A DNA stretch of 24,000 nt, taken from positions 130,298 to 154,297 of the forward strand of contig JBHLKM010000010.1 in NCBI GenBank assembly GCA_048886685.1, read 5' to 3'. The position numbers were made by a program, and so were the translations under genes. Below are positions 3,690 to 24,000 of the stretch, piece after piece. The notes under the pieces are model-generated. The model saw only the letters and a program-made list of their open reading frames with translations, searched no databases and was not told the DNA's origin. The stretch is from Candidatus Hodarchaeota archaeon (lineage in GTDB: Archaea; Asgardarchaeota; Lokiarchaeia; Sigyniarchaeales; SOKP01). Each line of letters begins with the position of its first letter. The first letter of the stretch is position 1.

Positions 3690-4076
3690 CTAGTCTTCTT
3701 CTTCGAATTGCCATTCGGCGCTTTCGAGAGGTATTTTTTTGGAAATTCCGAAATTATCTTCTTTAGATATATCTAACTCTTGAAATTTGTCTTTTAATAT
3801 TTTATTTTCAAAATTTGGGATTTCATTTATGAGAAAGGCTTTTGATATTGGACTTACAGGTGGAGAGAGAGTATTTGATTTTTTAGCTATGATTTCTTTA
3901 GTTATTTTTTGATTTAATCGTTCATTTTTGTTAAAAAAGGGATTTCCAATCATAATATTAGGCTTTTTCATTCTACTAAGAGTATTTTTTGGAAAAGTAG
4001 ATTTTGCAGTTCGACACATTGGACAATTTATTTCATCTAAACCATGTATGCAAGGCATTTTTTCTGTATCTCTCAT
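3690..4076 (-). CDS. hypothetical protein with an N-terminal CxxxxxxxxCxxC knuckle and an acidic Trp-containing tail
   Basis: 128-aa ORF that does not overlap any other call. The N-terminus reads MPCIHGLDEINCPMC and the C-terminus ends ESAEWQFEEED. I recognise no family. Confidence 0.5.
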   Translation of the reverse strand: MRDTEKMPCIHGLDEINCPMCRTAKSTFPKNTLSRMKKPNIMIGNPFFNKNERLNQKITKEIIAKKSNTLSPPVSPISKAFLINEIPNFENKILKDKFQELDISKEDNFGISKKIPLESAEWQFEEED

Positions 4077-4300
4077 TTATTCAATTTCTAAGTATTTCGA
4101 ATTATTTGTATCTTTTATTTTTTTTTATTATAATTTCTTAGTAAAAATATATTTTAAAATCAGAGAATTAAATATAGAATAATTCTATTTTTATGGTTAT
4201 TATTTATAAACTTTATAAATTTAAACCAATTTTACTTAATGTTTAAAGTACATTAATAATAAGTACTCTAATAAAAAAAGAAAGCTAAAGTGTAATCAGA

Positions 4301-6067
4301 ATGGCAGATTGGCAAGTAAATGAAGAAAAGGCTTGGTTCAAGAAATGGTGGCCTAAAGATACACCTAAAAATTATGATTTTGAAAAAATTTCTTTAGGAG
4401 ATTTCTTTGAAAGACAGAGAAAGAAATACGCGAACGAAAGAATGATGTGGTTTATAGATTCATGGATGACGTATGAGGAAGCTGGTCAGGCAATAGATTC
4501 TTTAGCAACAGCACTTCATAATTTAGGTATAAAGAAAGGAGATGTGGTTGCATATTTAATGCCAAATAGTTTTCAATATGTTATATGCTTCTATGCAACT
4601 ATAAAATTAGGAGCAATTGCGACAGGTATAAATCCAACTTATAAACCTTTAGAAGTATTACATCATCTTAAAATAACTGGTGCTACTGTATTAATAACTC
4701 TAGATGCGCTATACGAGGAATTAGCTCGTCCTGTTATTAAACAGTCAAAAATTGAGATGGTAATCTATACGAATATAGTAGATTTAGCCTCAGGTTTATC
4801 AAGCTTAAAAAAAGGCTTAGGAAAATTTTTAGGAAAAATACCAAAAGGGAAGGTAGATTTTCCTGGAGCGATTAAATTTTTGGATCTTCTTGAAACAGAA
4901 CCAGATCTCCCAAAGGTAGATTTTGATCCTTTTGAGCATACAGCTACTTACATTATGACTGGAGGAACAACTGGAGTACCAAAAGCGACTGTATTGTCCC
5001 ACTTTAATTTAGTTTCGAATGCAATTCAAGCAGTTTTATGGGTAGGTGGAGAAGATCCTGGCGTAGGAGATATTGGTGCTATACCCCTTTTCCATTCGTT
5101 TGCGATGACGGCGGTTATGAATGTTTCTATTGGTTTGGGAGGGTGGATGATGTTATTTGTGAGACCCCCACAAACCGAAGAATTTCTGAAAGAAATTACA
5201 CATATAGATGCTCCAAGAGGTCTTTTTTATGCAGGAGCAGAAATACTGTTCAAAAGAATCGCAGATTTTCCGAATCTTAAGAAATTTCCTAACTTAACTG
5301 GCAGATTAAGACTCTGTATCTCAGGAGCAGGACCTTTACATGCTCCAGTACAAAAATCATTTCAAGAAAATACTGGCGGAAGAATAGTAGAGGGATACGG
5401 ACTTTCAGAAGCAAGTCCAATTGTAAGTGGTGGAAATTTATTTGGTGAAAGCCCTATTGGTGTAATTGGTATGCCGTTTCCTGGTACCGATTGGGGAATC
5501 TTTGATGTAGATGACTTTGAGAAAGGACCAATAGCAGATGGGTTACCAGGATCTAAATATGGGGAGAAAAATACAGGAGAATTGTGTGTTTGTGGTCCTC
5601 AAGTTATGAAGGGATATCTAAACCAACCTGACGAAACCGCAGAAACCTTAAAAATTTGGGATGGGAGAACTTGGCTACTTACAGGTGATATAGGGTTTAT
5701 GAATGAGGATGGGACAGTAGCTCTTAGAGACAGAAAGAAACAATTGATTAAAGTAGCAGGTCATTCGGTATTCCCAGCTGAAGTTGAAACTATGCTAATG
5801 AGTAATGAAGCCGTTTCGGAAGCTGCTGTAGCTGGGCTTCCTGATCCAAAAGGAAAAGTTGGTGAAATCACAAAAGCATGGGTTACTTTAAAACCTGAAT
5901 ATAAGGGCAAAATTACCGAAGAAGAATTAATTGCTTGGACTGAAAAGAACATGACAAAGTGGAAATGCCCTGCTATCATTGAATTTATCGATGAGATTCC
6001 TAAAAATATAATGGGAAAAGTTCAGAGACGTGTTTTACAAGAAGCAGATCCGTTATACAAGAAATAA
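4301..6067 (+). CDS. AMP-forming acyl-CoA synthetase (fatty-acid--CoA ligase, ANL superfamily)
   Basis: 588-aa ORF with the ANL core motifs YIMTGGTTGVPKATVLSH (A3), GYGLSEAS (A5), TGDIG (A7), RDRKKQLIKVAGHSVFPAEVE (A8) and PKNIMGKVQRR (A10 Lys). Confidence 0.9.
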   Translation: MADWQVNEEKAWFKKWWPKDTPKNYDFEKISLGDFFERQRKKYANERMMWFIDSWMTYEEAGQAIDSLATALHNLGIKKGDVVAYLMPNSFQYVICFYATIKLGAIATGINPTYKPLEVLHHLKITGATVLITLDALYEELARPVIKQSKIEMVIYTNIVDLASGLSSLKKGLGKFLGKIPKGKVDFPGAIKFLDLLETEPDLPKVDFDPFEHTATYIMTGGTTGVPKATVLSHFNLVSNAIQAVLWVGGEDPGVGDIGAIPLFHSFAMTAVMNVSIGLGGWMMLFVRPPQTEEFLKEITHIDAPRGLFYAGAEILFKRIADFPNLKKFPNLTGRLRLCISGAGPLHAPVQKSFQENTGGRIVEGYGLSEASPIVSGGNLFGESPIGVIGMPFPGTDWGIFDVDDFEKGPIADGLPGSKYGEKNTGELCVCGPQVMKGYLNQPDETAETLKIWDGRTWLLTGDIGFMNEDGTVALRDRKKQLIKVAGHSVFPAEVETMLMSNEAVSEAAVAGLPDPKGKVGEITKAWVTLKPEYKGKITEEELIAWTEKNMTKWKCPAIIEFIDEIPKNIMGKVQRRVLQEADPLYKK

Positions 6068-6212
6068 AATCATTTTTTTTTATCTTTTTTAGAAAATTTT
6101 AAATTTCCAGAATCTTGAATTAAAGTTATTAATTAAATTTTAATTTCTGTTTTAATTAAATTTCAATATCCTAAAGTAATAAATATCTTTATTGAATAAT
6201 CAAAGTCTGGCT

Positions 6213-7355
6213 ATGACAAAAGGAATAATAATCTCTGGTGGTTGGGGAACCCGTTTACGCCCATTAACGTGTACCATTCCTAAATCTCTAATTCCAGTAG
6301 TTAATAAACCAGTTATAGAGCGTCAAATACTTTTATTAAAAGCTGCTGGGGTGACTGATATTTTCTTAGCTGTAAGTGTAATGGCTGATATTTTACAAAA
6401 CTACTTCGAGGATGGTCAAAAATTTGGAGTAAACATTCAATACACAGATGAGAGAGTACCAATGGGAACCGCGGGTGCTATTAAGTTAGCTGAGGATTAT
6501 TTAAAAGGTGAAAATTTTTTTATGTTAAATGGAGATGTCATATTGAATTTTAATATGAGCCAGATGATTAATTTGCATGAAAAGAATAAAGGAATTGGAG
6601 TTATTGCTAGTAAAGTGGTAGAAGATCCATCGAGGTACGGGGTTTTAATAGTAGATAATGATACGGGTAAAATTAATAAATTCCTTGAAAAAGATGAGTA
6701 TCAACCTCCAGAAGGAAAGTATGTTCCGATGCCTATCAATGCTGGAGTTTATTTACTAGAACCTGATGTCTTCGAGTATATCGAACCTACTAAAAAGGTA
6801 TCTATTGAGAGAGAGATTTTCCCTAAACTCGCAAAAGAAGGTAATTTGTATTTTTATCCAATATCTGGCATTTGGAAGGATATTGGAAAACCAGAAGAAT
6901 TATTAGATGCGAATATACTACTGATGAAAGATATCTTACAGAATTCAAATGATCAACAGAAGAACATTATAGATGGCAGCCTTGATATTGACGGAAAAGC
7001 TCTAATCTATCCTCCTGTAGTTATAGGAAAAAATGTAACAATACGAAAAAATTGTGAAATAGGGCCAAACGTTATAGTGGGCGATAATGTCTATATTGGA
7101 GTTAATACAAAAATTAAAGAATCATTAATTTACAACAAAGCCTATATATCTAGGCAGGTAACAATTGAAAAGGCGATTGTATCTGATAATTGTGTAATCA
7201 ATGATAAGGTTAACCTAAAAGGTAATAACCAAAATTTAGTGATATTAGCTTCTTATACTGAAGTTTTAGAAAAAGTTAACTTAATTGCACCTTCAAATGG
7301 TTCTATTACAGTTTGTCATCATGAAACCGTAAAAGATGATATTCGATTAAATTAG
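6213..7355 (+). CDS. sugar-1-phosphate nucleotidyltransferase (NDP-sugar pyrophosphorylase) with a C-terminal left-handed beta-helix domain
   Basis: The GGWGTRLRPLT signature (GGxGTRLxPLT) lies near the N-terminus. EKP-type and GxWxDxG (SGIWKDIGKP) motifs are present. C-terminal hexapeptide repeats read IGKNVTIRKNCEIGPNVIVGDNVYIGVNTKI. The track starts at a TTG (6192). The in-frame ATG at 6213 (MTKGIIISGG) is the more likely start. Confidence 0.85.
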   Translation: MTKGIIISGGWGTRLRPLTCTIPKSLIPVVNKPVIERQILLLKAAGVTDIFLAVSVMADILQNYFEDGQKFGVNIQYTDERVPMGTAGAIKLAEDYLKGENFFMLNGDVILNFNMSQMINLHEKNKGIGVIASKVVEDPSRYGVLIVDNDTGKINKFLEKDEYQPPEGKYVPMPINAGVYLLEPDVFEYIEPTKKVSIEREIFPKLAKEGNLYFYPISGIWKDIGKPEELLDANILLMKDILQNSNDQQKNIIDGSLDIDGKALIYPPVVIGKNVTIRKNCEIGPNVIVGDNVYIGVNTKIKESLIYNKAYISRQVTIEKAIVSDNCVINDKVNLKGNNQNLVILASYTEVLEKVNLIAPSNGSITVCHHETVKDDIRLN

Positions 7356-8725
7356 ATTTCTTCGCGAAGTCTCATTATTTTTTTCTTAAGCTTTTTTATT
7401 CTGGAATCTGAGACATTGAAAATTAAGAAACTTTCTAAGATCTTTAGGGCCTTTTGATAAAAATTAATACTATTCAGATAATCTCCATTCTTTTCAGCAT
7501 TTTCTCCAGCTTCTAAAGCAAAATCTAATTCTAACTGCTTCTCTTTTTTTTCGAGATCTAATACTGATTGCGAAATTCTATTAATATCTTCTTTAATATT
7601 GAATTCTCTTGCTATATAAAGAGCCTTTTTATATTCTTTTTCTGCGACCTGATATGCTAAAGTTTTTTCAGCATTTTTAGCTTTCTTTACAAATTCTTTT
7701 ATCATCTTACTTGCCGATAAAATATCCATTTCATCTAAGTTGAGTTCGATAGCATCAATTCCAGTATTACTTGAAAGAATGGATGATATTGGTTTAAATT
7801 TAGCTACTTTTTCAGAAATAGTCTCCTCGAGCATTTCAATATTACTAGCAACGGTTTCAAGATTTGTAGAAATAAAAATATTGTTTTTTACTAGCTGATA
7901 AATCTCATAAAGAATAATATTTGCATCCAAATTTACAATTTTTTTTACTCGATTAAGCAGATTATTTATGAAGAAAAATTGTTTAGAAGCAAGAAGTTCT
8001 TTAGCTAAGGTTAGTATGGCTTTTTGGATTTGATTTTGATTTATTTTCTCTAAATCGTTTGGTGCAATACTATGTGCTAAAGACATAGGAAATACTAATT
8101 TAACATTAAAAGAATCTACCAAATATTCAATCATGTTTTCAACATTAAAAATCCCAGAATCTTTAAAATTACTGATTTCATTTTGAAAAATATCCTCGTA
8201 TTCTAACAAAAATTGTCTTACATCAGTCCGCAGGTTATCTGAAGCTGTATGGTCGAGTATTAGGCAAATCCTTATAAATTCTCCATTTTTGAGTAAGATA
8301 TTAAAATTCTGATATTGAAATTCATAGAATTGATCATTTCTGAGATAACTTGAACCATTAGATGAAACTGTGTCTGATTCAGAGAAGGTTATATTTGCTT
8401 GAATAAAACCACTTAATAAATCTGCATCAATTTCCGCACCTGAAACAGAATAGTTTAATAATTTCAAGCCTGATTCTTTATCCATTAATATAATGTGCCG
8501 AATATTCAAAACATCCAAAAATTTCCGCCAAATAATTTCCCGCTCCACTTGAAGATGCCTTTCATATGAATCCAATTCAAAAACTTCCAAGCTTGAATCA
8601 ACTTCAAATCCTAACTCCTTTAGTTTCTTTTTAAGACATGACATACAATATTTAGGATATTTTGCACACTTAGATTTACTAACTCCGCAATTAAATCCTA
8701 ATTGATTAATTTCAAAATAAACCAT
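7352..8725 (-). CDS. hypothetical protein: N-terminal Cys cluster, longin/roadblock-like segment, C-terminal MIT/TPR-like helical repeats
   Basis: 457-aa ORF. It has a Cys cluster (NCGVSKSKCAKYPKYCMSC). A beta-beta-alpha-beta-beta-alpha pattern reads IRHIILMDKESGLKLLNYSV...DADLLSGFIQANITFSES...FYEFQYQNFNILLKNGEFIRICLILDH...LRTDVRQFLLEYEDIF. The C-terminal helices read EKEYKKALYIAREF and AEKNGDYLNSINFYQKALKILE. The domain assignments are inference only. Confidence 0.6.
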   Translation of the reverse strand: MVYFEINQLGFNCGVSKSKCAKYPKYCMSCLKKKLKELGFEVDSSLEVFELDSYERHLQVEREIIWRKFLDVLNIRHIILMDKESGLKLLNYSVSGAEIDADLLSGFIQANITFSESDTVSSNGSSYLRNDQFYEFQYQNFNILLKNGEFIRICLILDHTASDNLRTDVRQFLLEYEDIFQNEISNFKDSGIFNVENMIEYLVDSFNVKLVFPMSLAHSIAPNDLEKINQNQIQKAILTLAKELLASKQFFFINNLLNRVKKIVNLDANIILYEIYQLVKNNIFISTNLETVASNIEMLEETISEKVAKFKPISSILSSNTGIDAIELNLDEMDILSASKMIKEFVKKAKNAEKTLAYQVAEKEYKKALYIAREFNIKEDINRISQSVLDLEKKEKQLELDFALEAGENAEKNGDYLNSINFYQKALKILESFLIFNVSDSRIKKLKKKIMRLREEI

Positions 8726-8901
8726 AAAAACCCTATAGAACTTAAATAGTATTCAATTTCTACTTATTTCTATTATAATGAAATAAGAATGTTTTATGCA
8801 TTTAAAATTGAGTATTTAAAACTTTAATTTTTTATAATAATGCGAAATATTTATTATTCAAATTCAGAAATTATAAAATGACAATAACTTGTGAGGATTA
8901 A

Positions 8902-9180
8902 ATGGAAGACCTTAAGGAAAAAGGGCTTAAAATATATAATGCTATTTTTGAAGGAAAAAAAACTGTTGAGATTGAAGAAATCGAATATCCAATAAAGAAA
9001 TTTTCAAGCGGTATAAAATATGTTGACCTATTCGGATATCGTTATATAGAGCAAAATCGCAATAAAAAGTCAGAATGGGGCAAAAAAGCAAGAGAAGGAC
9101 ATAAGATCATGTGGATTATCAAAGGTAGAAGGTATATTGCCCAAATTATAGATGGAGATTATAACGATCTAAAGAAGTAA
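8902..9180 (+). CDS. hypothetical small protein
   Basis: 92-aa ORF preceded by an SD-like GTGAGGAT a few nt upstream of the ATG. I recognise no family. Confidence 0.45.
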   Translation: MEDLKEKGLKIYNAIFEGKKTVEIEEIEYPIKKFSSGIKYVDLFGYRYIEQNRNKKSEWGKKAREGHKIMWIIKGRRYIAQIIDGDYNDLKK

Positions 9181-11854: not shown

Positions 11855-12568
11855 ATGGGTATTCGAAAGATAGAAGATGAGATTGATTTAAAAGAAGCGA
11901 TGAAGAAAAAGGCAGCAGAATTAAAGATGAAAGATATGGAAGCAAGAGCATCTGTCGAAAAATTTACTAAAGATCGGTTACGTGAACTTGCTAAAAGACA
12001 TGGCGTTTTATTAGCTCTAACTCCTGAATTAAGAAATGAAGTTAAGGAATTACAGAAAAAATACAATATCCCTTCATCTAAAATCATAACTGAACAAATA
12101 ACAGAACATGATGTTTTAAAAAAATTTTCTAAAATAGATCATGAAAAATTAGGAATGCTTGCATACCAACGGGTTTTAATGGCAAAAGAAGAAACAGGGG
12201 GGATAATCCCATTGTCAGAAGTATTCGAATTGATTAATACCGGAATATTAAAAGGTAATGTTGAGGTTAAGGATATTGATAAAGCTTTAAGTCTCCTGAA
12301 AAAAAAGAAGGTAATTGAAGATATTACACAATTAGAATCTGGAGCTATTATAGTAAGATTCTTTCCTATTCAATATACAGGGGATGAGTCTAAGGTTGTT
12401 GAATTAGCAAAAGAAAAAGGTATTCTCACTTTAGAAGATGTGTGTGTTAAACTAGATTGGTCTCAAGATCGTGCTCTTCATGCATTAGAATCACTTGAAA
12501 AGAGTGGAATCGCAAAGTATAGAGAAAATATTTTAACTGGGAAACAATGGTTTTTCCCATCAATATAA
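11855..12568 (+). CDS. vps22: ESCRT-II subunit, Vps22/Vps36-like (EAP30 domain, tandem winged helix)
   Basis: 237-aa ORF that aligns by eye with human VPS22/EAP30. It has a basic N-terminal helix. NGGLITLEEL aligns with TGGIIPLSEVF. DDLIRAIKKLKALG aligns with KDIDKALSLLKKKK. VVLQLAEKNGYVTVSEIKASLKWETERARQVLEHLLKEGLAW...YWLPALF aligns with KVVELAKEKGILTLEDVCVKLDWSQDRALHALESLEKSGIAK...QWFFPSI. Confidence 0.85.
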   Translation: MGIRKIEDEIDLKEAMKKKAAELKMKDMEARASVEKFTKDRLRELAKRHGVLLALTPELRNEVKELQKKYNIPSSKIITEQITEHDVLKKFSKIDHEKLGMLAYQRVLMAKEETGGIIPLSEVFELINTGILKGNVEVKDIDKALSLLKKKKVIEDITQLESGAIIVRFFPIQYTGDESKVVELAKEKGILTLEDVCVKLDWSQDRALHALESLEKSGIAKYRENILTGKQWFFPSI

Positions 12569-12581
12569 AGAGAAAATTTAG

Positions 12582-13484
12582 TTATTCCAATTTTATTTTA
12601 AATGCTAATTGTCCGTTCTCTAATTTGAGGACTTTAGCTCTACGATTTTTCGCTAAGATTTTAAAAATCTCTTCCAAATCTTCTAAAGGAAGATTACTAA
12701 AATCTTCTTGTTTTGCTTCCCGGAGTTCATATATCATAATAGGTTCAAGCTTTCCATTATCATAAGCCCATTTATATATCTCATCTGACCAGACTTCAAG
12801 TGTTTTCCAATAAATTCTTAGTTTTTCTTTCTTTTTGGATAGCCATACCGCTTGTTTTTGACTAATTAATTGCTCTGCAATTTCTAATATATATTTTTCT
12901 CTTTTAGTAAAATTCGAAAAAGGTTTTTGAGAATTTAATTCTCTTATATAAATTATATGGAGAACAGCAAAACGAGCATAATCAAAAAGAACTTTTGCCC
13001 ATTCTGTTTTCCAAGAAATATAATCATTTTTCTGATTATCTTTATTAGGCATAGTATACATGAATTTTTTACGCTCTTCTTCTAACCAAGGATAAGCTTT
13101 TAACAATTTTTCATAAGCAGTTAATTTCTTTTCAATAAGCCCTTTTTCTCCTATGATTTCTTCTTCTAATTCTTGAAGTTCAGCTTCAATTTGGTCAGCA
13201 TGTCGTTGGTATACTTTATTATCAATTTCTCCTGCTTTCGAGCTTAAAATATTCTCAAGTTTATCAAATTCCTTTTCGATATAGCTTAAATCTGCAATTT
13301 TAAAATCTGATTCGTTAATTATTTGTCTTTCTAATGCTTCCTTCTCTAGTTCTTCTTTTTCTTTTTTTAATGTCCTTAAACGGGCTAGTTCTTTCCTTAA
13401 TTCTTCTAATTCTTTTTCTGCTTTTTCTTTTTCTTCTTTAGGGACTTCCGCTGTTTTCTCTCGTTGTCTTTCCATGTTATTCAA
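12582..13484 (-). CDS. vps25: ESCRT-II subunit Vps25-like, with a ~125-aa N-terminal charged coiled-coil extension
   Basis: 300-aa ORF. Residues ~130-300 align by eye with human VPS25. PWQYRFPPFFTLQPN..TR.KQL..W aligns with YPWLEEERKKFMYTMPNKDNQKNDYISWKTEW. FLIMWRRPEEWGKLIYQWVSRSG...FTLYEL aligns with LRIYWKTLEVWSDEIYKWAYDNGKLEPIMIYEL. The C-terminal EEFHGLDEATLLRALQALQ...GVKF aligns with EDFSNLPLEDLEEIFKILAK...LAFKI. Its start lies 9 bp after the vps4 stop on the same strand. Confidence 0.85.
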   Translation of the reverse strand: MNNMERQREKTAEVPKEEKEKAEKELEELRKELARLRTLKKEKEELEKEALERQIINESDFKIADLSYIEKEFDKLENILSSKAGEIDNKVYQRHADQIEAELQELEEEIIGEKGLIEKKLTAYEKLLKAYPWLEEERKKFMYTMPNKDNQKNDYISWKTEWAKVLFDYARFAVLHIIYIRELNSQKPFSNFTKREKYILEIAEQLISQKQAVWLSKKKEKLRIYWKTLEVWSDEIYKWAYDNGKLEPIMIYELREAKQEDFSNLPLEDLEEIFKILAKNRRAKVLKLENGQLAFKIKLE

Positions 13485-13493
13485 TCTCGTTTC

Positions 13494-14714
13494 TTATACT
13501 TCTCCAAATTCTTCTGCCCAATCATTATATTGTTTTATAAGAGTTTTATTAGTCATCGGTTTTACTTTTTTTAAAGTCTTCTTAAAATCTTTTAAATTTA
13601 TATCTCTAACTTTTACCTCTTTATCTGAACTTTCCAAAAGGCCACCCATATCCAATTCTCGAATTGGTAACATGATAACCTCACGACAAACATTCGCAAT
13701 ATCTCTACCAGAATATCCTTCAGTTCTAACAGCTAATTCAATATAATCTTCATCTGTTAATGCTGAGTTTACACCCTCAGTATGGATTTTAAAGATTCCT
13801 GATCTCGCTTTCATATCTGGAAGAGGAACATGAACTCTTTTCTCAAATCTACTCAGCATTGCATTGTCAATATCCCATGGACGATTTGTCGCTCCCAACA
13901 CCAACAAAGGTTTATCATGAGTAGATTTTAATCCTTGTATTTCACTCAATAACTGTGTTTTGACTCTCCTTTCACCACCGCTTTCAGTTCCTTCTCCCCG
14001 CTTTGTAGCTACAGAATCGATTTCATCCATAAATATTAGACTTGGTGCTCTCAATCTCGCAACTTTGAATAGAGAACTAATTAATTTCTCACTTTCACCT
14101 AACCATTTACTTAATAGATCAGCTGAAGAAGCGCTAAAAAAGGTTGCATTACATTCTGTGGCTGCCGCTTTAGCTAATAAAGTCTTACCACATCCTGGTG
14201 GACCAAAAAGTAAAATTCCTGACCAAGGTCTCCTAGCACCCGTAAATAATTCAGGTTTAGCTATTGGAAGAACTATTGCTTCTCTCAGAGCTTGTTTAAC
14301 GTTTTGTAGCCCCGCAATATCCTCCCATTTTACATTAGGTGATTCGGTAACTATTGTACCAGAGATCATATCAATCAATTCTTGCTCTTCCGAAGAAACC
14401 GCTCCAGCTTCGGAATCCGTCAGACTAGAATCTCCAGTAATACTTGGTGCTTCAGAAGGTCTTGTTCTCCTAGGACTCACTCCACTGAGATGAGATTTTA
14501 GTATTTTAGCTCTCTCGACGTATTCTTCAATGTTCTTTTGGCACAACATTCTCATTTGCGGATTCTTATTATATTTCATAAATTGCATTAAGATCTCTGC
14601 TGCACGTTGGTATTTATTTATAGCCTGCCTTTTTTTTCCTTGATTGTCCAATGCTACTGCTTCTTTTGCCGTTTTCACAGCATATTGATAAAGTTTTGAA
14701 TCTACAGATGACAT
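13494..14714 (-). CDS. vps4: Vps4-type AAA+ ATPase (N-terminal MIT domain, single AAA+ cassette, Vps4 C-terminal helix)
   Basis: 406-aa ORF. MIT-like helices read AVKTAKEAVALDNQGKKRQAINKYQRAAEILMQF and YVERAKILKSHL. The motifs are Walker A GPPGCGKT, Walker B LIFMDEIDS and SRH ATNRPWDIDNAMLSRFEKR. The C-terminal LIKQYNDWAEEFG is typical of Vps4. Confidence 0.95.
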   Translation of the reverse strand: MSSVDSKLYQYAVKTAKEAVALDNQGKKRQAINKYQRAAEILMQFMKYNKNPQMRMLCQKNIEEYVERAKILKSHLSGVSPRRTRPSEAPSITGDSSLTDSEAGAVSSEEQELIDMISGTIVTESPNVKWEDIAGLQNVKQALREAIVLPIAKPELFTGARRPWSGILLFGPPGCGKTLLAKAAATECNATFFSASSADLLSKWLGESEKLISSLFKVARLRAPSLIFMDEIDSVATKRGEGTESGGERRVKTQLLSEIQGLKSTHDKPLLVLGATNRPWDIDNAMLSRFEKRVHVPLPDMKARSGIFKIHTEGVNSALTDEDYIELAVRTEGYSGRDIANVCREVIMLPIRELDMGGLLESSDKEVKVRDINLKDFKKTLKKVKPMTNKTLIKQYNDWAEEFGEV

Positions 14715-14896
14715 ATTAAATATATTACAAAATTCTTAGTATTTATAGCTAATGTAATTTAGCAATCTGTATGATTAATAATTGAATCAGAATATATCAA
14801 ATTTACTCTTTAAGCAAAAGATAATAAATATTGGTCTACAAATAATTATATAATACCGAATTTTTTTATATCATATATAATATATAAGAAATTTTG
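14715..14896. promoter_or_regulatory. divergent promoter region between vps4 and the ESCRT-III gene
   Basis: A 180-bp, very AT-rich spacer lies between divergently transcribed genes. TATA-like TTTTTATA at 14863-14870 sits ~27 bp before the first in-frame start codons, which suggests a leaderless or near-leaderless ESCRT-III mRNA. Several other TATA-like strings are present, so the exact elements are uncertain. Confidence 0.3.
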
Positions 14897-15532
14897 ATGA
14901 TTATGGGTTTTCTAAAAGATATCTCTAAATGGTTAAGCGGTGGTAAGAGGGAAAAAGACACTGTTCGCTCTGCAGCAGTAAAATTGAAAGTATTTAATAA
15001 AAGACTGATGCGACAAACTAAAAAATTAGAGATGAGCGCAAAATTAGCAAGAGATAAAGCAGTAAATCTACGGAGACAAGGTGATATGGATGGATCTAAA
15101 TTTCATGCGCGTAATTATCTTCAGGTTAAGAAGCAATCAAGAGTGGTGGAAATGTTTCGCACCAATCTGGAAGGTTTATTGTTCAAATTGGAGCAAGCAA
15201 CTGCAGTTAAAGATGTATCCGAAATTATGACTGGAATTGCTCAATCTCTTGCCACTTTAAAAAGTCAACTTTCCGTTCCTCAGATGACAGAATTAATGAG
15301 CCAAATCGATATTGATATGGAAGAATTTGCTGTAACTGCTGATATTGCTACAGAAGGTATGGATAATATCTCAATTGATACTGCTGTTACCGATTCAGAT
15401 GTTAACGAAGTTTTAGGAGAAATAGATGCAGAGATTCAAGTGGAAATGGGTGCGGCATTACCAAGTGCAGCATCTGACGAAAAGATAGCCGAGTTAGAGA
15501 AAGAGTTAAACCGTTTGAAATCTGATGAATAA
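14897..15532 (+). CDS. ESCRT-III subunit (Snf7 family), Vps2/24/46 (CHMP1-3)-like, with a C-terminal MIM1-like helix
   Basis: About 210-aa ORF with a basic N-terminal helical hairpin and an acidic C-terminal half, the typical ESCRT-III charge asymmetry. By-eye similarity to Vps2: LPQLQRISMEFEKQ aligns with VPQMTELMSQIDID, and DEIVNKVLDEIGVDL aligns with SDVNEVLGEIDAEIQ. The C-terminal AELEKELNRLK fits the MIM1 pattern LxxRLxxLK. The track starts at TTG 14894; in-frame ATGs at 14897 and 14903 are more plausible starts. Confidence 0.9.
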   Translation: MIMGFLKDISKWLSGGKREKDTVRSAAVKLKVFNKRLMRQTKKLEMSAKLARDKAVNLRRQGDMDGSKFHARNYLQVKKQSRVVEMFRTNLEGLLFKLEQATAVKDVSEIMTGIAQSLATLKSQLSVPQMTELMSQIDIDMEEFAVTADIATEGMDNISIDTAVTDSDVNEVLGEIDAEIQVEMGAALPSAASDEKIAELEKELNRLKSDE

Positions 15533-17789: not shown

Positions 17790-18236
17790 ATGAAAGTACT
17801 TATAGTTTACGACACAAAATACGGAAACACTCGAAAAGTGGCTGAATTAATTGGCGAGGGCCTCAAAACCATTGAAGAAAATGAGGTCACAATTGCAAAT
17901 GTGAAAGAGATTGATCTGAATAAAGATCAGATTTATGATTTAATACTTGTTGGTTCTCCAAATCATATGGGGACTCATACGGAATCTGTTAGGAAATTCA
18001 TAAAGGGTCTTCGCGACGCTTTATTAAAGGGAAAATCTTTTGCAGTATTTGATACGTATATGTCAAAGGATTATGAAAAAGCAGTAAAGAGAATGGAAAA
18101 GCAAATTAATATGGTTATACCAAATATGGCTAGAGCAAGTTCTGGATTGTCTATTAAAGTTGGAGGGAAGAAAGGACCAATTGTGGAAGAAGATCTCCCT
18201 AAATGTAAAGAATTTGGAATTAGCCTTGCTAAATGA
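17790..18236 (+). CDS. flavodoxin (short-chain type)
   Basis: 148-aa ORF that starts MKVLIVYDTKYGNTRKVAE, an FMN phosphate-binding loop. LILVGSPNHMG and FAVFDTY match flavodoxin-fold strands. Confidence 0.85.
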   Translation: MKVLIVYDTKYGNTRKVAELIGEGLKTIEENEVTIANVKEIDLNKDQIYDLILVGSPNHMGTHTESVRKFIKGLRDALLKGKSFAVFDTYMSKDYEKAVKRMEKQINMVIPNMARASSGLSIKVGGKKGPIVEEDLPKCKEFGISLAK

Positions 18237-19242: not shown

Positions 19243-20358
19243 TTAACTACTTGTTTTATAGGCCCCCACTTTTTTTGCCAATATCTCTACTTCCGTAGAG
19301 TTAGAGAATAAAGCACAAGGAGAACCATTGGTTTCTAATAAATGTTCACTTTCTCTAATAACCTTAAATAATTGACTATCGAGACCAGCTTTCAAGGAGG
19401 ATTTCGTCAGGTTATGTGTAGCAATATTCGAAACTGGACATGGGGTTAAGTCTCCTGAGGGTGTTACATGAGCGAATCCTCTACCAGCAGACACACATCC
19501 CCCCATATACTCTTCATCTCCAGGAGAGTGGACTAAGAAAATCTGTTTCGTTTCACGATAATTTAATACCTTTTTTCTAAACTCGATGCTTTCTTCTTCA
19601 GTTAGCATTAATTCATTATCATTATCTACTGGGATATATTCAAGTAGAAAAGCCAAACGTACTCCTTTTGATATCAAATCATCGAGGTTTTCTGATTTCA
19701 TCCAAAATTTAAAATTATTGCGATTAATAGTGACTGAAATTCCACTTATAACTCCAATTTCATCTAAGTTATTAATAGTACTTAACACTTTTTCATAAAC
19801 ACCATATCCTCTTCTTGAATTTGTTAATTCCTGATCTCCTTCAATACTTACTATAATTATTGTATTTTTTTGACGTTTTAATTTCTTATAGTCTTCTTCT
19901 CCTAAAATTGTTCCATTTGTAAATATCAAAAAGAGCCTATCTTTGAACTCCTTGCTGATTTGTAATAGATTTGGCATTAAAAAAGGTTCTCCACCTGCAA
20001 TTATGAATCCAAAAACTCCTAATTCAGAAGCTTCTTTAATAATTTCGATCCATTGCTCTAAATCGAGAGATTTATTTGTTTTATTATTACATAACGTTCC
20101 CGTTGCTGCAGCATAACAACCAGTACATTTAAGATTGCAGTTTGAAGTAATACTTAATATTAAAAAGGAAGGAACTTTTGTTCCCTGCAATAATTCTTCT
20201 ATCCTTATTCTACGACTCTTTTTATAAGCTCTTGCTAATCGCATCATCGCATACATGCTTTTTGGGTGTTTTAGAATCCAGGGCATGAAAATTTTGGCCA
20301 TTTTAGAATCTACTTTCATTAAGGTCTTATTAATAAATTTGGTCTCTTTATTTTCCAT
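19243..20358 (-). CDS. radical SAM enzyme with a short C-terminal Cys-containing (twitch/partial-SPASM-like) segment
   Basis: 371-aa ORF. It has the CNLKCTGCYA cluster motif (CxxxCxxC), the GGEPFL SAM-binding motif, and a C-terminal GGCVSAGRGFAHVTPSGDLTPCP resembling the first half of a SPASM/twitch domain. The substrate is unknown. Confidence 0.8.
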   Translation of the reverse strand: MENKETKFINKTLMKVDSKMAKIFMPWILKHPKSMYAMMRLARAYKKSRRIRIEELLQGTKVPSFLILSITSNCNLKCTGCYAAATGTLCNNKTNKSLDLEQWIEIIKEASELGVFGFIIAGGEPFLMPNLLQISKEFKDRLFLIFTNGTILGEEDYKKLKRQKNTIIIVSIEGDQELTNSRRGYGVYEKVLSTINNLDEIGVISGISVTINRNNFKFWMKSENLDDLISKGVRLAFLLEYIPVDNDNELMLTEEESIEFRKKVLNYRETKQIFLVHSPGDEEYMGGCVSAGRGFAHVTPSGDLTPCPVSNIATHNLTKSSLKAGLDSQLFKVIRESEHLLETNGSPCALFSNSTEVEILAKKVGAYKTSS

Positions 20359-20565
20359 AATTCTTTTCTATATAATCCATTTATTTTTAGTAAATAGTAA
20401 AATTAATCTTAAAATATAATTTCAGTAGTCCATTTTTTAAGAACTATAACTAAAAATACATAAATGTCAAATATACATCTTGATTTTATGTAATTGCAAA
20501 TTATCTTATGTATTTTAAAAGAATTCTTACTCTAATACAATAGTTTTAAAGCGATAACATTCATT

Positions 20566-22554
20566 TTATACATTCGGAATTACATATACTTTCTTTACAA
20601 TTTTATTGACGAAGTGTTTTATTTTTTCTTCAGTTTTAGTTCTTGGTACGAATAGAGTTCCATTATTGGTATAACCAAATAATTTATCCATTATAGATCT
20701 TGGTTTATGAACCATTGTTTTAATTGTTTTTATTAAATAATCTACATCAGATTTCTTATTTTCAATACCAATACTTATTCTTAATGTCCCCGGAAGACAC
20801 ATTGCTGTTCTTTTTGGAAATATCAACGATGTCATTCTTGCCCCAAGAATTCTGATTTTTTGGATTTTAAGGATTTTTTGAATTAATATATGAGCACAAA
20901 AACAACCATTTCGAACTCCAATCCCGCCGTATTCTGCAAGTTCCTTTGCTGCAACATTATGAGGAACTTTTGCTAAATTGAATGAGATAATACTACCTCG
21001 CTTACTAATATTATAAGAATTTAAAACATCTATTCCAAAGATTTTTACATCTTCTATTTTCCTTAAACCATCTATGGCAATTTCGATCAAATTATTCTCG
21101 TAATCTTCAATTTTTTCAATCCCAATCTTTTCCAGAAGCAATATTGCCTTCCCTAATGTAGCAATTCCAACAACATTTTCTTCACCAGATAATTTAATCT
21201 TCATTATCTCATTAGGATTATACCTTATTAATCTTTTTTTCACCACTAGTACTCCAGTACCGAATGGAGCATAGATTTTATGCCCCGAAAAGGTAAAATA
21301 ATCGATATCAATATCAGAAATATTAATCTTATGATGAGCTACTAATTGAGCTGCATCAATAAGCATTTTTGCACCATATTTATGCACAATTTCACTAATT
21401 GCTTTAAGATCATTACGTGTACCAAGAACATTAGAGGCTGCACTCACAGAGACTAGTTCTACCTTTCTAGTTTTAAGTTTAGCATTTTGATTATATTTAC
21501 GGAGCAAATCCTCTAGTTCATTCGAATTTATAAATCCATCGTCATCAACAGAAATCCTCATTAAGTTAGTGTTTGGAATGTAACGGAAGGGAAGTTCATT
21601 GGAGTGATGTTCCAGCTCTGTATTAATTATAACTGATTTTTTATTCTTTTTAGGCTTTATTGCCAAATTACGAGCTACTATATTTATTGCTTCGGTTGTA
21701 TTTAGTGAAAAGATTATATCATATTTATCCAATGGTGCGTTTAAAAATTTGGAGATGATCTCTTTTACATCATGTATAATGTCTTTATGAATTTCCTTTG
21801 ATTGCCTTAATGTTTTACAAAAGACTTTCCAAATTGGTGAAAACGTTGGAGTACTTGCAGCATTATCTAAATTAATAAAATGTTTTATTCCTTCTAATGT
21901 TGGAACCTTAATATTATGCCCTACTAATAATTTTTGAAGCTCATGTAATAATTCTATTCCAGAGAATTTATCTAATTCATCATGATATAAAATTTCATGT
22001 GAAGTTTCTTCCCAATTAGGTATTCGTATTTTGAACACTTTATCAGGATTTTTAATCAATTGAAGAATTACTGCAAATGCAATAATATTCAGTATATTAG
22101 GTGTACCTGCCTCAAATCTTTCGGGAGGATCTGCCCAAATAACATATTTAGAAGTAACATGCTTGATCATTCCACCACCAGTAAAGATTACAGAGCATTT
22201 ACGAAGAACTCTTTTTTTAACAGCAATAGCTCTTACTCCTAGTGGTAATTCAAAATCTCTACTAGATAAAATGAAATAATCTGTAGAATTAAGTTGAGTT
22301 TTAAATATTTCTAATCTAAGAGGGCTACAAAATACTACGGTATATTTCTTATTATTTAATTGTAAATAATCTAGAATGATCACTCTTGCTTGTTCATATA
22401 AAGCAGTAGTAGCCAATGAATTATGACCAGTGCCTCTATGAACATTAGAGTATGTCTTCAATGCTGTAAATAATGCTCTTTCCAACTCTTCAAAAGCATC
22501 ATTGGTGTTGGTAGCTGAATTTTCATTTTGTACTAGATAATTCATTCCATTCAT
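20566..22554 (-). CDS. class V aminotransferase-fold PLP enzyme, SufS/cysteine desulfurase-like, with a degenerate N-terminal partial copy of the same fold
   Basis: 662-aa ORF. Residues ~225-620 form a complete class V unit: NLDNAASTP, SLNTTEAINIVA, ELEHHSN, LIDAAQ, the FSGHKIYAPFGTGVLVV PLP-Lys motif, and VRNGCFCAH (SufS catalytic-Cys position). Residues ~30-170 repeat only the NVHRG...ALYEQAR and GGGMIKHV...PERFEAGTPNI segments and lack a PLP-Lys region. The start ATG overlaps the upstream stop (ATGA at 22551-22554). Confidence 0.85.
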   Translation of the reverse strand: MNGMNYLVQNENSATNTNDAFEELERALFTALKTYSNVHRGTGHNSLATTALYEQARVIILDYLQLNNKKYTVVFCSPLRLEIFKTQLNSTDYFILSSRDFELPLGVRAIAVKKRVLRKCSVIFTGGGMIKHVTSKYVIWADPPERFEAGTPNILNIIAFAVILQLIKNPDKVFKIRIPNWEETSHEILYHDELDKFSGIELLHELQKLLVGHNIKVPTLEGIKHFINLDNAASTPTFSPIWKVFCKTLRQSKEIHKDIIHDVKEIISKFLNAPLDKYDIIFSLNTTEAINIVARNLAIKPKKNKKSVIINTELEHHSNELPFRYIPNTNLMRISVDDDGFINSNELEDLLRKYNQNAKLKTRKVELVSVSAASNVLGTRNDLKAISEIVHKYGAKMLIDAAQLVAHHKINISDIDIDYFTFSGHKIYAPFGTGVLVVKKRLIRYNPNEIMKIKLSGEENVVGIATLGKAILLLEKIGIEKIEDYENNLIEIAIDGLRKIEDVKIFGIDVLNSYNISKRGSIISFNLAKVPHNVAAKELAEYGGIGVRNGCFCAHILIQKILKIQKIRILGARMTSLIFPKRTAMCLPGTLRISIGIENKKSDVDYLIKTIKTMVHKPRSIMDKLFGYTNNGTLFVPRTKTEEKIKHFVNKIVKKVYVIPNV

Positions 22555-24000
22555 TTTATGTTTTTTATTTCAAACAAGCAAGTTGGATCCGATGTTATAT
22601 TACTACCGGATGATATAAAAGCTTTTGCTCTACATCCACCACATATAGTTTTAAAATTACATTTTCCACATTGACCTTCATACTTTAAACCACGATATTG
22701 ATTTAAAATTGGTGAAGCTTGCCAAATTTTTTGAATGTGATGCTTTTTGACATTTCCAAGATACACAGGATTTAGAGGACAAGGTGTAACATCTCCATTT
22801 GACTTAATATGCATTGTAAAGACACCACATTCACAGCCTGTAATAAATGGAGAAAATGGGCTTTGTTTGCTAAAAACGCCATCACTAAGTCTCTCTGAAA
22901 AATTAAAGTATGATATTGCTTCACGTGAGAAGATACTTTTAAAAAAAGGAGCAATAATTACTTTTGGGAATCTTTGAGCTAAAATTCGTGCAAAAACAGG
23001 ATTCTTATATGAAAGAGTTAACGGATAGTCTTCATTCATTAGATTTTGCCAAATATCGCATAGAATAACACTAAATTTCTCGATCTGGAACGGAGTTAAA
23101 GTTATATGTACTTGCGAAGATGCCTTGCCAGAGGGAACAAAATCAATAATTTCAAATTTTTGAACCTTTAAAGATTTAGCTAAATCGACTAATTCATAGA
23201 TCTGATGGACATTCTGTTTGGTAATTGTAGTCCCTATACATGTATATAAGCCTTCATTTAGACAATGTTTTATTGCTGAAATTGCTTTTTCAAAGGTACC
23301 GATGCCACGTATTTGTTCGTGAACATCTTTTAACCCATCGATACTTACTTGAACATATCCAACACCAATCTCTTTTAATTGTTTAGCCTTTTTCTCATCG
23401 ATTAGGGTGCCATTAGAAGCAAGCGCAACATTAACATTTTTACCCGAAGCATATCTCATAAGTTTAAATATATCGTCTCTAAGTAGAGCTTCTCCACCAA
23501 AAAAAATTAAAATGAAATTTTTTGCTTCAGCTAATTGGTCAATGATGTTACATGCTTTATTATAGGATATCTCATCCAAATCCTGGTCAACATAACAATG
23601 AGTGCATTTTAAATTACACCGTTGAGTCACTGACCAGAATACTACAGGAGGTCCTATCGGGATGGTTGGCATTTTAAAACCATACATACCAATTCCTTCT
23701 ATATAGGATAGTGCTAGTCGTTTTAAAGCCTCATTTTCTTTTAAAATCTTCGGAAATCTCTTTTTAGGTATATTTAAACTTCGACTTACTGCATTCAGCA
23801 CGAAGGAAATTAAAGTCGTAGAGATAATAGTTTTATATCTACATTTCTTACATTTAATTTTTTTGGTTATGTAGTAATCTATAAAGATTTCGGAAAATTT
23901 ACGTTCACAAGATGGACAATGTTTATTAAATAGATGAAAAAATTTGGTTATATGAAATCTATTTATGATATTCCAAATTAAAAGGTCTAACTTTATAACC
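22551..24000 (-). CDS. radical SAM/SPASM-domain enzyme (AhbD/NirJ-like maturase family), probably 5'-truncated by the window edge, with a Zn-ribbon N-terminus
   Basis: It has the CNLKCTHCY cluster motif, GGEALL, VQVSIDG, DFVPSGKAS, and a full C-terminal SPASM Cys pattern (GCECG...NGDVTPCP...CGKCNFKTICGGCRA...C). The track start at 23801 is a GTG. My translation shows the same frame stays open with no stop for all 66 codons up to base 24000 (...FNKHCPSCERKFSEIFIDYYITKKIKCKKCRYKTIISTTLISF...). That stretch contains a CxxC...CxxC ribbon and no ATG, GTG or TTG. Confidence 0.8.
   Translation of the reverse strand, partial: VIKLDLLIWNIINRFHITKFFHLFNKHCPSCERKFSEIFIDYYITKKIKCKKCRYKTIISTTLISFVLNAVSRSLNIPKKRFPKILKENEALKRLALSYIEGIGMYGFKMPTIPIGPPVVFWSVTQRCNLKCTHCYVDQDLDEISYNKACNIIDQLAEAKNFILIFFGGEALLRDDIFKLMRYASGKNVNVALASNGTLIDEKKAKQLKEIGVGYVQVSIDGLKDVHEQIRGIGTFEKAISAIKHCLNEGLYTCIGTTITKQNVHQIYELVDLAKSLKVQKFEIIDFVPSGKASSQVHITLTPFQIEKFSVILCDIWQNLMNEDYPLTLSYKNPVFARILAQRFPKVIIAPFFKSIFSREAISYFNFSERLSDGVFSKQSPFSPFITGCECGVFTMHIKSNGDVTPCPLNPVYLGNVKKHHIQKIWQASPILNQYRGLKYEGQCGKCNFKTICGGCRAKAFISSGSNITSDPTCLFEIKNIK

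Follow-up and report, generated by a model that had tools for sequence, protein, structure and literature searches.

An undescribed association of a rearranged SufS-type PLP enzyme, an ICMT/PEMT-like membrane methyltransferase and a twitch-type radical SAM enzyme behind an Asgard gene cluster

Three consecutive genes on the minus strand of a 24,000-nt stretch of Candidatus Hodarchaeota archaeon DNA (contig JBHLKM010000010.1 of GCA_048886685.1, positions 130,298 to 154,297; hereafter, the window) encode a radical S-adenosylmethionine (SAM)/SPASM enzyme (gene 1), a SufS-type pyridoxal 5'-phosphate (PLP) enzyme (gene 2), and a twitch-type radical SAM enzyme (gene 3, rSAM2). This locus raises the question of whether two radical SAM enzymes and a desulfurase-like protein form one functional unit, as the original prediction from the window proposed, and what such a unit would do. 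The predicted domains were confirmed by Pfam (Radical_SAM/SPASM, Aminotran_5, and Radical_SAM, respectively), and all three proteins scored under the curated NCBIfam cut-offs; the gene combination had earlier not been matched to a named pathway. The unit itself did not hold. As originally described, the trio is a clade-specific juxtaposition and not a conserved operon; what lies behind it is a recurrent association of three protein families, previously undescribed, namely the PLP enzyme, a small ICMT/PEMT-like membrane methyltransferase, and rSAM2. The methyltransferase, which is encoded outside the window, had escaped notice, as had the AhbD/Gms-like character of gene 1 and the way in which the PLP enzyme is rearranged. 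The explanation that we favour, with a probability of roughly one in three, is that this module would mobilise sulfur, thiolate by radical chemistry, and methylate a hydrophobic substrate. Sequence beyond the end of the window was read in the locus L003 (the PLP gene ±10 kb on the 336-kb contig JBHLKT010000004.1 of GCA_048886345.1). Coordinates are given in Table 1.

The PLP enzyme belongs to a family of about 650 amino acids (aa) in which part of the SufS sequence is found in a separate N-terminal domain; it is referred to here as the split PLP enzyme, as opposed to unsplit relatives of about 470 aa. Clustering of the genes neighbouring the split PLP gene yielded one recurrent partner, the ICMT/PEMT-like membrane protein. 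A hidden Markov model was built from these neighbours and applied with a distance limit of 8 kb from the split PLP gene. The methyltransferase gene was found in 6 of 18 independent lineages, as compared with none of about 62 loci with ordinary SufS relatives of 400-500 aa (Fisher's exact test, p = 6e-5). The six lineages are the Loki clade, a Thor lineage (L004), a Chloroflexia metagenome-assembled genome (L005), L015, an Aminicenantes lineage (L017), and L177. The two genes are adjacent in L004 and L177; the methyltransferase gene overlaps the PLP start in L017, and the L177 copy is interrupted by an assembly run of N. In L005 (4998-9938), genes for the ICMT-like protein, a GMC-like flavin adenine dinucleotide (FAD) enzyme, CysK, and the split PLP enzyme follow one another on the same strand, with CysK (381 bits, above its cut-off) directly upstream of the PLP gene. 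The GMC-like enzyme carries a CxxCGxCxxGC motif, and a MalT-like regulator gene lies upstream of the cluster. A relative of this GMC-like gene stands immediately before the PLP gene of L009.

The best match of the methyltransferase in the PDB was the integral-membrane ICMT of M. acetivorans (4A2N, E = 2.6e-8). The partner protein resembles ICMT/Ste14 (4A2N), MddA, and LmtA in its matches to 4A2N, PF04191/PF04140, and NF040696, and its matches to MddA were weak (29-32 bits). It differs from ICMT/Ste14 in scoring 41-54 bits against a curated cut-off of 160 and in being linked to a desulfurase and a radical SAM enzyme, not to prenylation machinery.

The methyltransferase gene also lies close to rSAM2, in Loki loci (L092/L093, L099, L104, and L108/L109) as well as in L124/L125 and L166. 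The loci L124/L125 are the most telling: rSAM2 is followed after a 15-nt gap by the gene for a 477-aa unsplit PLP enzyme, and a convergent ICMT-like gene abuts the end of the latter. This PLP enzyme shares with the window enzyme both the GCFCAH loop and the insertion of about 38 aa, and the rSAM2 is 58% identical to that of the window; the flanking genes differ. In the protein P0356, a single open reading frame (ORF) of 538 aa from a 2861-nt Joint Genome Institute (JGI) contig, an ICMT/PEMT-like domain (residues 48-195) is joined to rSAM2 (217-538). The fusion carries little weight because 28-32 aa are deleted from its radical SAM core. From these linkage patterns, the repeatable network links the PLP enzyme and rSAM2 to the ICMT-like methyltransferase and includes flavodoxin; the SPASM enzyme attaches to it in one Loki clade only. 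No description of the PLP/methyltransferase/radical SAM combination was found in the literature that we searched.

The linkage of the original trio was then a matter of comparing related loci. An arrangement of CDF, ICMT/PEMT-like, and VhuG-like (Oxidored_q6) genes on the minus strand followed by divergent radical SAM/SPASM and PLP genes on the plus strand is kept in L084, L085/L086, and L087. All three genes of the trio occur together only in L003 and L085/L086, and rSAM2 is missing from the PLP locus of the close relatives L084 and L087. The SPASM-PLP pair shares one contig in at least 13 cases, as judged from equal-sized contigs in both homologue tables; a number of them measure no more than 3.2-5.8 kb, and the pairing holds down to 53% PLP identity. 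No PLP gene was found near the distant Asgard SPASM orthologues (51-58% identity; L089, L090, and L091). A metagenome scan with the rSAM2 family gave 80 loci, none of which has a true SPASM orthologue or a 650-aa PLP enzyme adjacent to rSAM2; any PLP enzyme stands beside it in just two (L124 and L125, of the unsplit type). The trio linkage is accordingly not conserved in related genomes, and the proposed tie between PLP and radical SAM enzymes survives in a different form, as the independent lineage L124/L125 with its unsplit PLP enzyme. Furthermore, rSAM2 is solitary in Methanofastidiosia (L094), and no rSAM2 or radical SAM/SPASM orthologue adjoins the PLP gene at the bacterial split-PLP loci.

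In Loki genomes, the usual surroundings of rSAM2(+) are Ldh2, CDF(-), and sometimes ICMT-like(-) on one side, and PhzF(-) and sometimes flavodoxin(-) on the other. The interval between CDF and PhzF contains rSAM2 alone (L092, L095-L112), the SPASM gene alone (L091), SPASM and PLP genes (L084, L087), or all three (L003, L085), and in further genomes a CrtI-like FAD enzyme and an FNR-like reductase together with the radical SAM gene(s). Since the gene sets differ among genomes, the slot is variable. The stretch is best explained as two transcription units in a variable Loki-type slot, flanked by the genes of a CDF transporter and of PhzF: one is the SPASM-PLP pair, confined to one Loki clade, and the other is rSAM2 with its own promoter-like element. 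At the distant SPASM orthologues, the radical SAM/SPASM gene of L090 is next to a gene pair (4053-6814) for a CrtI/CrtD-like FAD oxidoreductase and a 2Fe-2S reductase of the FNR-like type, and in L089 a gene for a DUF1847 protein (8491-9153) lies 15 nt downstream of the radical SAM/SPASM gene and a flavodoxin-like gene about 2.3 kb upstream. A CrtI/CrtD-like and FNR-like pair, 35% identical to the L090 version, adjoins rSAM2 in L097 (9152-11970) and also in L130, L132, and L141.

Alignment of 10 rSAM2 upstream regions indicated a near-invariant element of about 30 nt, TAAAAAWTGGACTACTGAAATTATAAGTTA, even though the genes upstream of them differ (PLP, CDF, or ICMT-like). The window copy sits 61 nt before the rSAM2 ATG. 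An exact 14-mer core was present in 12 of 176 loci, and in about 30 loci a copy of the core with up to two mismatches lay upstream of rSAM2, at a distance of 42-89 nt. We take the GAAAT-TATAA part of the element to resemble an archaeal B recognition element/TATA (BRE/TATA) pair, with an extra TGGACTA upstream. An identical 14-mer stands ahead of the SPASM orthologue of L091 as well (6942-6955), so that the two radical SAM genes may share their regulation or a common regulator; a degenerate copy precedes the SPASM orthologue of L090. The element had no match in Rfam. A sigma-70 promoter/terminator scan, being unsuited to archaea, was uninformative.

The observations on linkage bear on the main competing explanation, namely that the genes were brought together without a shared pathway and that the CDF-PhzF slot gathers unrelated accessory genes. 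The SPASM enzyme would then tailor lipid tails in the manner of Gms (see below), rSAM2 would be an independent housekeeping-type archaeal radical SAM enzyme, and the PLP enzyme and ICMT-like protein would be a pair of their own, converting, for example, (seleno)cysteine to sulfide or selenide for MddA-like methylation. We regard this as possible, though somewhat unlikely. The varying content of the slot, the separate promoter element and solitary occurrence of rSAM2, the bacterial PLP-methyltransferase pairs that have neither radical SAM orthologue adjacent, and the MddA matches, weak as they are, all fit it. It sits poorly with L124/L125, in which rSAM2, PLP enzyme, and methyltransferase genes are tightly packed amid different flanking genes, with the renewed proximity of rSAM2 and methyltransferase in L166 and the P0356 fusion, and with a SPASM-PLP pair that persists over the range of identity given above.

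The favoured explanation requires a source of sulfur, for which the PLP enzyme is the candidate. Its match to SufS (TIGR01979) gave 262.6 bits in three stretches, below the cut-off of 475.1. The AlphaFold2 model was a single compact chain (predicted local distance difference test score (pLDDT) 88.9; predicted TM-score (pTM) 0.92), and the best Foldseek matches were SufS structures with a TM-score on the target of about 0.8-0.87 (e.g. E. coli SufS, PDB 6mr2 and 7rw3). Residues invariant in the family are H425-K426 (the PLP-lysine pair), D400/Q403, E315-H316, R548, C551, and C553. These include the catalytic set of type II desulfurases (K426, C553, H316, and D400), whose Gly-rich loop and hairpin are also present, in the N-domain. 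Since all catalytic residues of SufS are invariant, cysteine desulfurase chemistry is plausible on the basis of the sequence; the CysK gene of L005 and the DsrE-like neighbours of unsplit relatives (see below) add to this plausibility.

The order of these parts is unusual. The catalytic unit (residues about 228-610) aligns to SufS 76-251 and 293-378 and lacks the NVHRG motif and SufS 251-293. Residues 113-161 align to SufS 246-294, which comprises the Gly-rich loop, the beta-hairpin, and RFEAGTP, and the N-terminal region of about 190 aa carries an invariant YSNVHRGTGH; the elements of the N-domain are exactly those missing from the catalytic unit. The Gly-rich loop and hairpin of SufS help to make up the active site of the neighbouring monomer (PMC10011822). 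Because the N-domain holds the very elements that in SufS reach the neighbouring monomer, the PLP enzyme probably arose by partial tandem duplication and is predicted to be a single-chain pseudo-dimer. The enzyme shares with SufS/CsdB the PLP fold, the His-Lys pair, EHHxN, D..Q, the catalytic Cys loop, the carboxylate-binding Arg, and the type II Gly-rich loop and hairpin. It differs in its length (about 650 aa versus about 405), in the transfer of NVHRG and the Gly-rich loop/hairpin/RFEAGTP segment to the N-domain, in an active-site loop (GCFCAH) with two invariant Cys, in the insertion of about 38 aa before the R-x-S motif, in a C-terminal tail of about 50 aa, and in its neighbours, which include no SufE, SufU, or SufBCD.

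At a clustering identity of 50%, at least 235 clusters contain the N-domain. Full-length members mostly have 620-700 aa, and in a few cases the domain is part of a giant protein of 1,100-6,900 aa. Hosts of the family of about 650 aa include Asgard groups, one genome labelled Thermoplasmatales, Chloroflexota, Acidobacteriota, Bacteroidota, Aminicenantes, and others. Unsplit relatives with the GCFCAH loop are common in bacteria, and three of them adjoin DsrE-like genes. The loop was considered as a marker of the module and rejected, since about 30 ordinary SufS-like genes of bacteria, with neither the methyltransferase nor rSAM2 as a neighbour, encode it too.

A desulfurase in this setting could instead be a dedicated supplier of Fe-S clusters, building or repairing the [4Fe-4S] clusters of the radical SAM enzymes and of the VhuG-like protein, with no sulfur entering the product. 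The demand would be there: the SPASM enzyme requires three clusters and rSAM2 two, the divergent 454-aa VhuG/MvhG-like protein is Cys-rich, and the conserved catalytic residues would serve this role equally. Nevertheless, this explanation is doubtful. Neither a SufE/SufU acceptor nor a SufBCD scaffold was found among the called genes of L003 and its relatives (L084-L087), nor IscU or NifU among those of the 22-kb locus; many bacterial loci of the PLP family have no recurring Fe-S enzyme as a partner; and the recurrent membrane methyltransferase is left unexplained.

The second component of the favoured explanation is rSAM2. It matched Radical_SAM (PF04055) with 66.6 bits (cut-off 29.5), and its cluster-motif Cys are invariant. 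The SPASM match of 17.6 bits is below the cut-off of 21.5 and three auxiliary Cys are conserved (C288, C307, and C348), which indicates a twitch-like enzyme and not a full SPASM enzyme, as had been proposed from the half-SPASM motif. Members of the family are 55-89% identical across Asgard groups and Methanofastidiosia and share the invariant, family-specific motifs HSPGDEE, GGCxSAGRGFAH, and THNL. The AlphaFold2 model (pLDDT 82.8) begins with three N-terminal helices, and its best Foldseek matches (SuiB, SkfB, PqqE, anSME, and viperin) represent the generic SPASM/twitch clade; Tes was absent from the top 50. The enzyme resembles SkfB, PqqE, MftC, anSME, and HpnH in how it is folded and in where its auxiliary cluster sits, and HpnH also in a helical lead-in before CxxxCxxC (TIGR03470, 51 bits). 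It differs from all of them in scores far under the cut-offs and in a context with no peptide, sulfatase, or hopanoid genes.

The flavodoxin gene that had been pointed out near the cluster encodes a short-chain protein and is the probable reductant of rSAM2; the association of flavodoxin with rSAM2 recurs in L096, L098, L121, L163, and L168. The archaeal lipoyl synthase LipS1/LipS2 was also considered, as it would explain two radical SAM enzymes with a sulfur donor, and was rejected: LipS1 and LipS2, which carry the annotation of biotin synthases (PMC9585515), are BioB-like, whereas both radical SAM enzymes here fall in the SPASM/twitch clade. Among the matches listed, neither radical SAM enzyme matched BioB/LipA-type families.

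The maturase matches raise the possibility that the SPASM and twitch enzymes modify or cross-link a precursor encoded elsewhere, as in the maturation of ribosomally synthesised and post-translationally modified peptides (RiPPs) or proteins. The best sequence and structure matches do include the maturases SkfB, PqqE, SuiB, CteB, and MftC; they are at the superfamily level only (45-63 bits), and the conservation of rSAM2 across phyla is unusually high for a RiPP maturase. Pfam found no domain in either N-terminal extension, so that no RiPP recognition element was detected. As the original prediction had already noted, the 207-bp gap between the PLP gene and rSAM2 (20359-20565) contains no candidate precursor: no ORF of at least 20 aa lies wholly inside it, and a 54-aa plus-strand ORF (20255-20419) extends into it from within the rSAM2 gene. 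Extension past position 24000 for a substrate gene likewise gave no small conserved ORF upstream of gene 1. Peptide maturation is therefore very improbable.

Gene 1 was correctly described as a Zn-ribbon radical SAM/SPASM gene, although the window shows it truncated: the full protein has 515 aa and, as read in L003, starts from a TTG 98 nt past position 24000. It matched Radical_SAM (PF04055) with 85 bits (cut-off 29.5) and SPASM (PF13186) with 41.6 bits (cut-off 21.5). The Cys of its CxxxCxxC motif are invariant in the alignment, and seven conserved Cys in the SPASM region are enough for two auxiliary clusters. For the two radical SAM enzymes, Pfam reported Radical_SAM, Fer4_12, and SPASM only, with no UPF0004/TRAM (the domains of MiaB/RimO/MtaB). 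The N-terminal extension of gene 1, of about 155 aa, holds a CxxC...CxxC Zn-ribbon. Across the Asgard family and a widespread family of about 474 aa, the first Cys pair of this ribbon (C61 and C64) is invariant and the second (C83 and C86) almost invariant. Homologues were Asgard-only down to 47% identity, followed by a sharp drop in score to the 474-aa family, with which gene 1 is collinear end to end, Zn-ribbon included (e.g. P0195; 33% identity, E = 2e-84), apart from an Asgard-specific insertion in the bridging region. In L175 (2895-9425), a Tes-type gene (PF23545 Zn_ribbon_HMPTM and Radical_SAM) and a UbiA prenyltransferase gene are found at a distance of 3.6 kb from P0195, which suggests a lipid context for the 474-aa family.

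The best NCBIfam scores of gene 1 were 222.7 bits for TIGR04053 (cut-off 395), 213.5 for NirJ2 (TIGR04055; 500), and 212.8 for AhbD (TIGR04545; 500); the other NirJ models, TIGR04051 and TIGR04054, gave 191.6 and 183.2 bits, and the cut-offs of the AhbD/NirJ models are 500-650. Judged by sequence, gene 1 is AhbD/NirJ/Gms-like, and it may modify lipids. GMGT (glycerol monoalkyl glycerol tetraether) synthase (Gms/Hbs) is an AhbD homologue whose N-terminal extension of about 100 aa forms a lipid pocket, and 23 Asgard Gms homologues have been reported (PMC11214058, PMC11186832). The extension is of the COG4001 type, and the pocket is hydrophobic (PMC11214058). Gene 1 and Gms/Hbs have in common a radical SAM core of the AhbD type followed by a full SPASM domain, an N-terminal extension of at least 100 aa that is absent from AhbD, and hosts that are obligate anaerobes. 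They differ in that the extension of about 155 aa contains a Zn-ribbon here, whereas in the published model of M. okinawensis Gms the first Cys is C123. Gene 1 is separated from the 474-aa family by about the same distance (33% identity) as Gms from AhbD. By comparison with the published description and the M. okinawensis model, gene 1 shares the architecture of Gms, a likeness that falls short of proven membership. Tes/GDGT-MAS (MJ0619), a candidate prompted by the Zn-ribbon and the three clusters, was rejected: neither 7TOL nor 7TOM was matched in the PDB at E <= 1e-5, and PF23545 was not detected.

That gene 1 is AhbD or NirJ itself, acting on heme or heme d1 intermediates, is the least probable explanation and can be set aside: these families are among its top NCBIfam matches, yet the scores are under half of the cut-offs, AhbD lacks the N-terminal extension of about 155 aa (PMC11214058), and neither ahbA/ahbB/ahbC nor another tetrapyrrole gene was present at the loci L003 (22 kb) and L084-L091. 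An anti-phage defence function was rejected as well, since PADLOC gave only generic matches to pVip (radical SAM) and DndA/SspA (class V) and the partner genes were absent.

We return to the module for sulfur mobilisation, radical thiolation, and methylation. Its functional core is most likely the desulfurase, the ICMT/PEMT-like membrane methyltransferase, and rSAM2, and in the Loki clade the SPASM enzyme most likely joins this core or replaces rSAM2. Gene content, domains, catalytic residues, and linkage were observed directly, and from them we infer that sulfur is transferred and that thiolation is by radical chemistry, and what the methyl acceptor and the substrate would be. The model follows the chemistry of MiaB, RimO, and LipA, the first two of which insert sulfur and then methylate. 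The desulfurase would convert cysteine to a persulfide on C553, and the persulfide sulfur would be handed to the open iron site of an auxiliary cluster of the radical SAM enzyme. That enzyme, reduced by flavodoxin, would form a C-S bond after abstracting a hydrogen atom from its substrate, which would be hydrophobic and is probably an isoprenoid or another molecule bound to the membrane; the membrane methyltransferase would then methylate the product. An open-site auxiliary cluster is supported by the three auxiliary Cys, and no more, that rSAM2 keeps. A hydrophobic substrate is proposed because the methyltransferase matches ICMT (4A2N), gene 1 is Gms-like, the relative of about 474 aa lies near Tes-type and UbiA genes, and CrtI-like genes are found among the neighbours. 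As a working model, the module resembles MiaB, RimO, LipA, BioB, and LipS1/LipS2 in a radical SAM enzyme with an open-site auxiliary cluster and in its dependence on a cysteine desulfurase. The radical SAM enzymes here differ from MiaB, RimO, LipA, and BioB in having no UPF0004/TRAM domains and no BioB/LipA-type motifs, and the module differs from MiaB/RimO in that methylation is assigned to a separate membrane enzyme.

Several points weigh against this proposal. About 70 of the 80 rSAM2 loci, many of them on short contigs, have neither a PLP enzyme nor the methyltransferase. The methyltransferase is missing from most bacterial split-PLP loci (12 of 18), and no bacterial split-PLP locus has an rSAM2 orthologue. 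The Loki-clade linkage could largely be synteny inherited among related genomes, and the P0356 fusion could reflect a pseudogene or a faulty assembly. Auxiliary clusters with three Cys are also present in radical SAM enzymes that do not insert sulfur, such as MoaA, and enzymes of the ICMT family methylate carboxylates, phosphates, amines, or thiols. To our knowledge, no product, substrate, or activity has been described for any of the four proteins.

A more specific form of the proposal, which we hold to be unlikely but worth stating, is that, in Asgard archaea and other anaerobes, a multi-phylum module equips an isoprenoid membrane lipid or another hydrophobic molecule with a group that contains sulfur and is subsequently methylated. 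It would consist of the single-chain pseudo-dimeric desulfurase, the ICMT-like methyltransferase, and rSAM2 as an open-site twitch enzyme, with the Gms-like SPASM enzyme of Loki as a second, co-regulated or interchangeable radical partner.

The junction of genes 1 and 2 was also re-examined. The ATGA start/stop overlap at 22551-22554 is present in the sequence, but the translational coupling read from it is neither proven nor conserved: gene callers place the PLP start at an ATG 9 nt downstream, which gives a 659-aa protein and a 5-nt gap in place of the overlap, and the SPASM-PLP intergenic gap is 122 nt in the relative L087. Co-transcription of the two genes is likely. Rfam gave no riboswitch or known RNA at E <= 1 between positions 19000 and 24000 of the window, a range that includes the 207-bp gap. 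The VhuG/MvhG-like gene is divergent from the radical SAM/SPASM gene in L003, L084, L085, and L087. It encodes a homologue of hydrogenase small subunits whose Cys-rich C-terminal module is apparently present twice in succession, and no large-subunit gene lies near it. Elsewhere in the window, a cluster of endosomal sorting complex required for transport (ESCRT) genes (11855-15532) supports the Asgard origin of the DNA.

Table 1 Positions of the genes and elements discussed. Numbers refer to the window unless a locus is named.
Feature	Position	Strand	Basis
Radical SAM/SPASM gene (gene 1)	22551..24000, open at window edge; L003 8448-9995	- in window	ORF and domains
CxxC-x18-CxxC Zn-ribbon, residues 61-86 of the 515-aa gene 1 protein	23841..23918	-	Frame and Cys positions
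CxxxCxxC radical SAM cluster motif of gene 1, C161/C165/C168	23595..23618	-	Invariant columns
SPASM region of gene 1, C422/C440/C477/C480/C486/C489/C507	22578..22835	-	PF13186 41.6 bits and invariant Cys
SufS-type PLP enzyme (gene 2), 662 aa; 659 aa from second ATG	20566..22554	-	Aminotran_5 270.8 bits
N-terminal domain of PLP enzyme, about 190 aa, partial SufS duplicate	21985..22554	-	Alignment to SufS, invariant motifs
Promoter-like element TAAAAAATGGACTACTGAAATTATATTTTAAG, core 20419-20432	20405..20437	-	Alignment of rSAM2 upstream regions
rSAM2 (gene 3), 371 aa	19243..20358	-	ORF and Radical_SAM domain
Short-chain flavodoxin	17790..18236	+	PF12724 50.9 bits
ICMT/PEMT-like membrane methyltransferase	L003 6143-6649, 1.9-2.4 kb past window end	-	PF04191/PF04140, 4A2N match
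VhuG/MvhG-like protein, 454 aa	L003 6882-8246, 300-1664 nt past window end	-	203 bits versus cut-off 450
ICMT/PEMT-like genes at other loci	L004 3003-3599; L017 7384-8001; L124 3023-3451; L166 3361-4167; L177 7651-7962		
EAP30/Vps25-like ESCRT gene	11855-12568	+	
ESCRT-II gene	12582-13484	-	
Vps4 gene	13494-14714	-	
Snf7/ESCRT-III gene	14894-15532	+	

If the genes are merely neighbours, the reading of the trio as one operon is still corrected and a recurring partner gene is identified. The rearranged SufS, if borne out, would be a clear case of dimer-interface elements moved into one chain and would offer a handle on how type II desulfurases protect and transfer the persulfide. The Zn-ribbon AhbD-like enzyme may widen the set of radical SAM enzymes that tailor archaeal lipids. 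If the proposed module is correct, it would represent a new route for adding sulfur and a methyl group to an unactivated carbon, in which the tasks of the single-protein MiaB/RimO are split among three proteins, and this route would operate in Asgard archaea, a group in which the chemistry of membranes and cofactors is relevant to models of the origin of eukaryotes.

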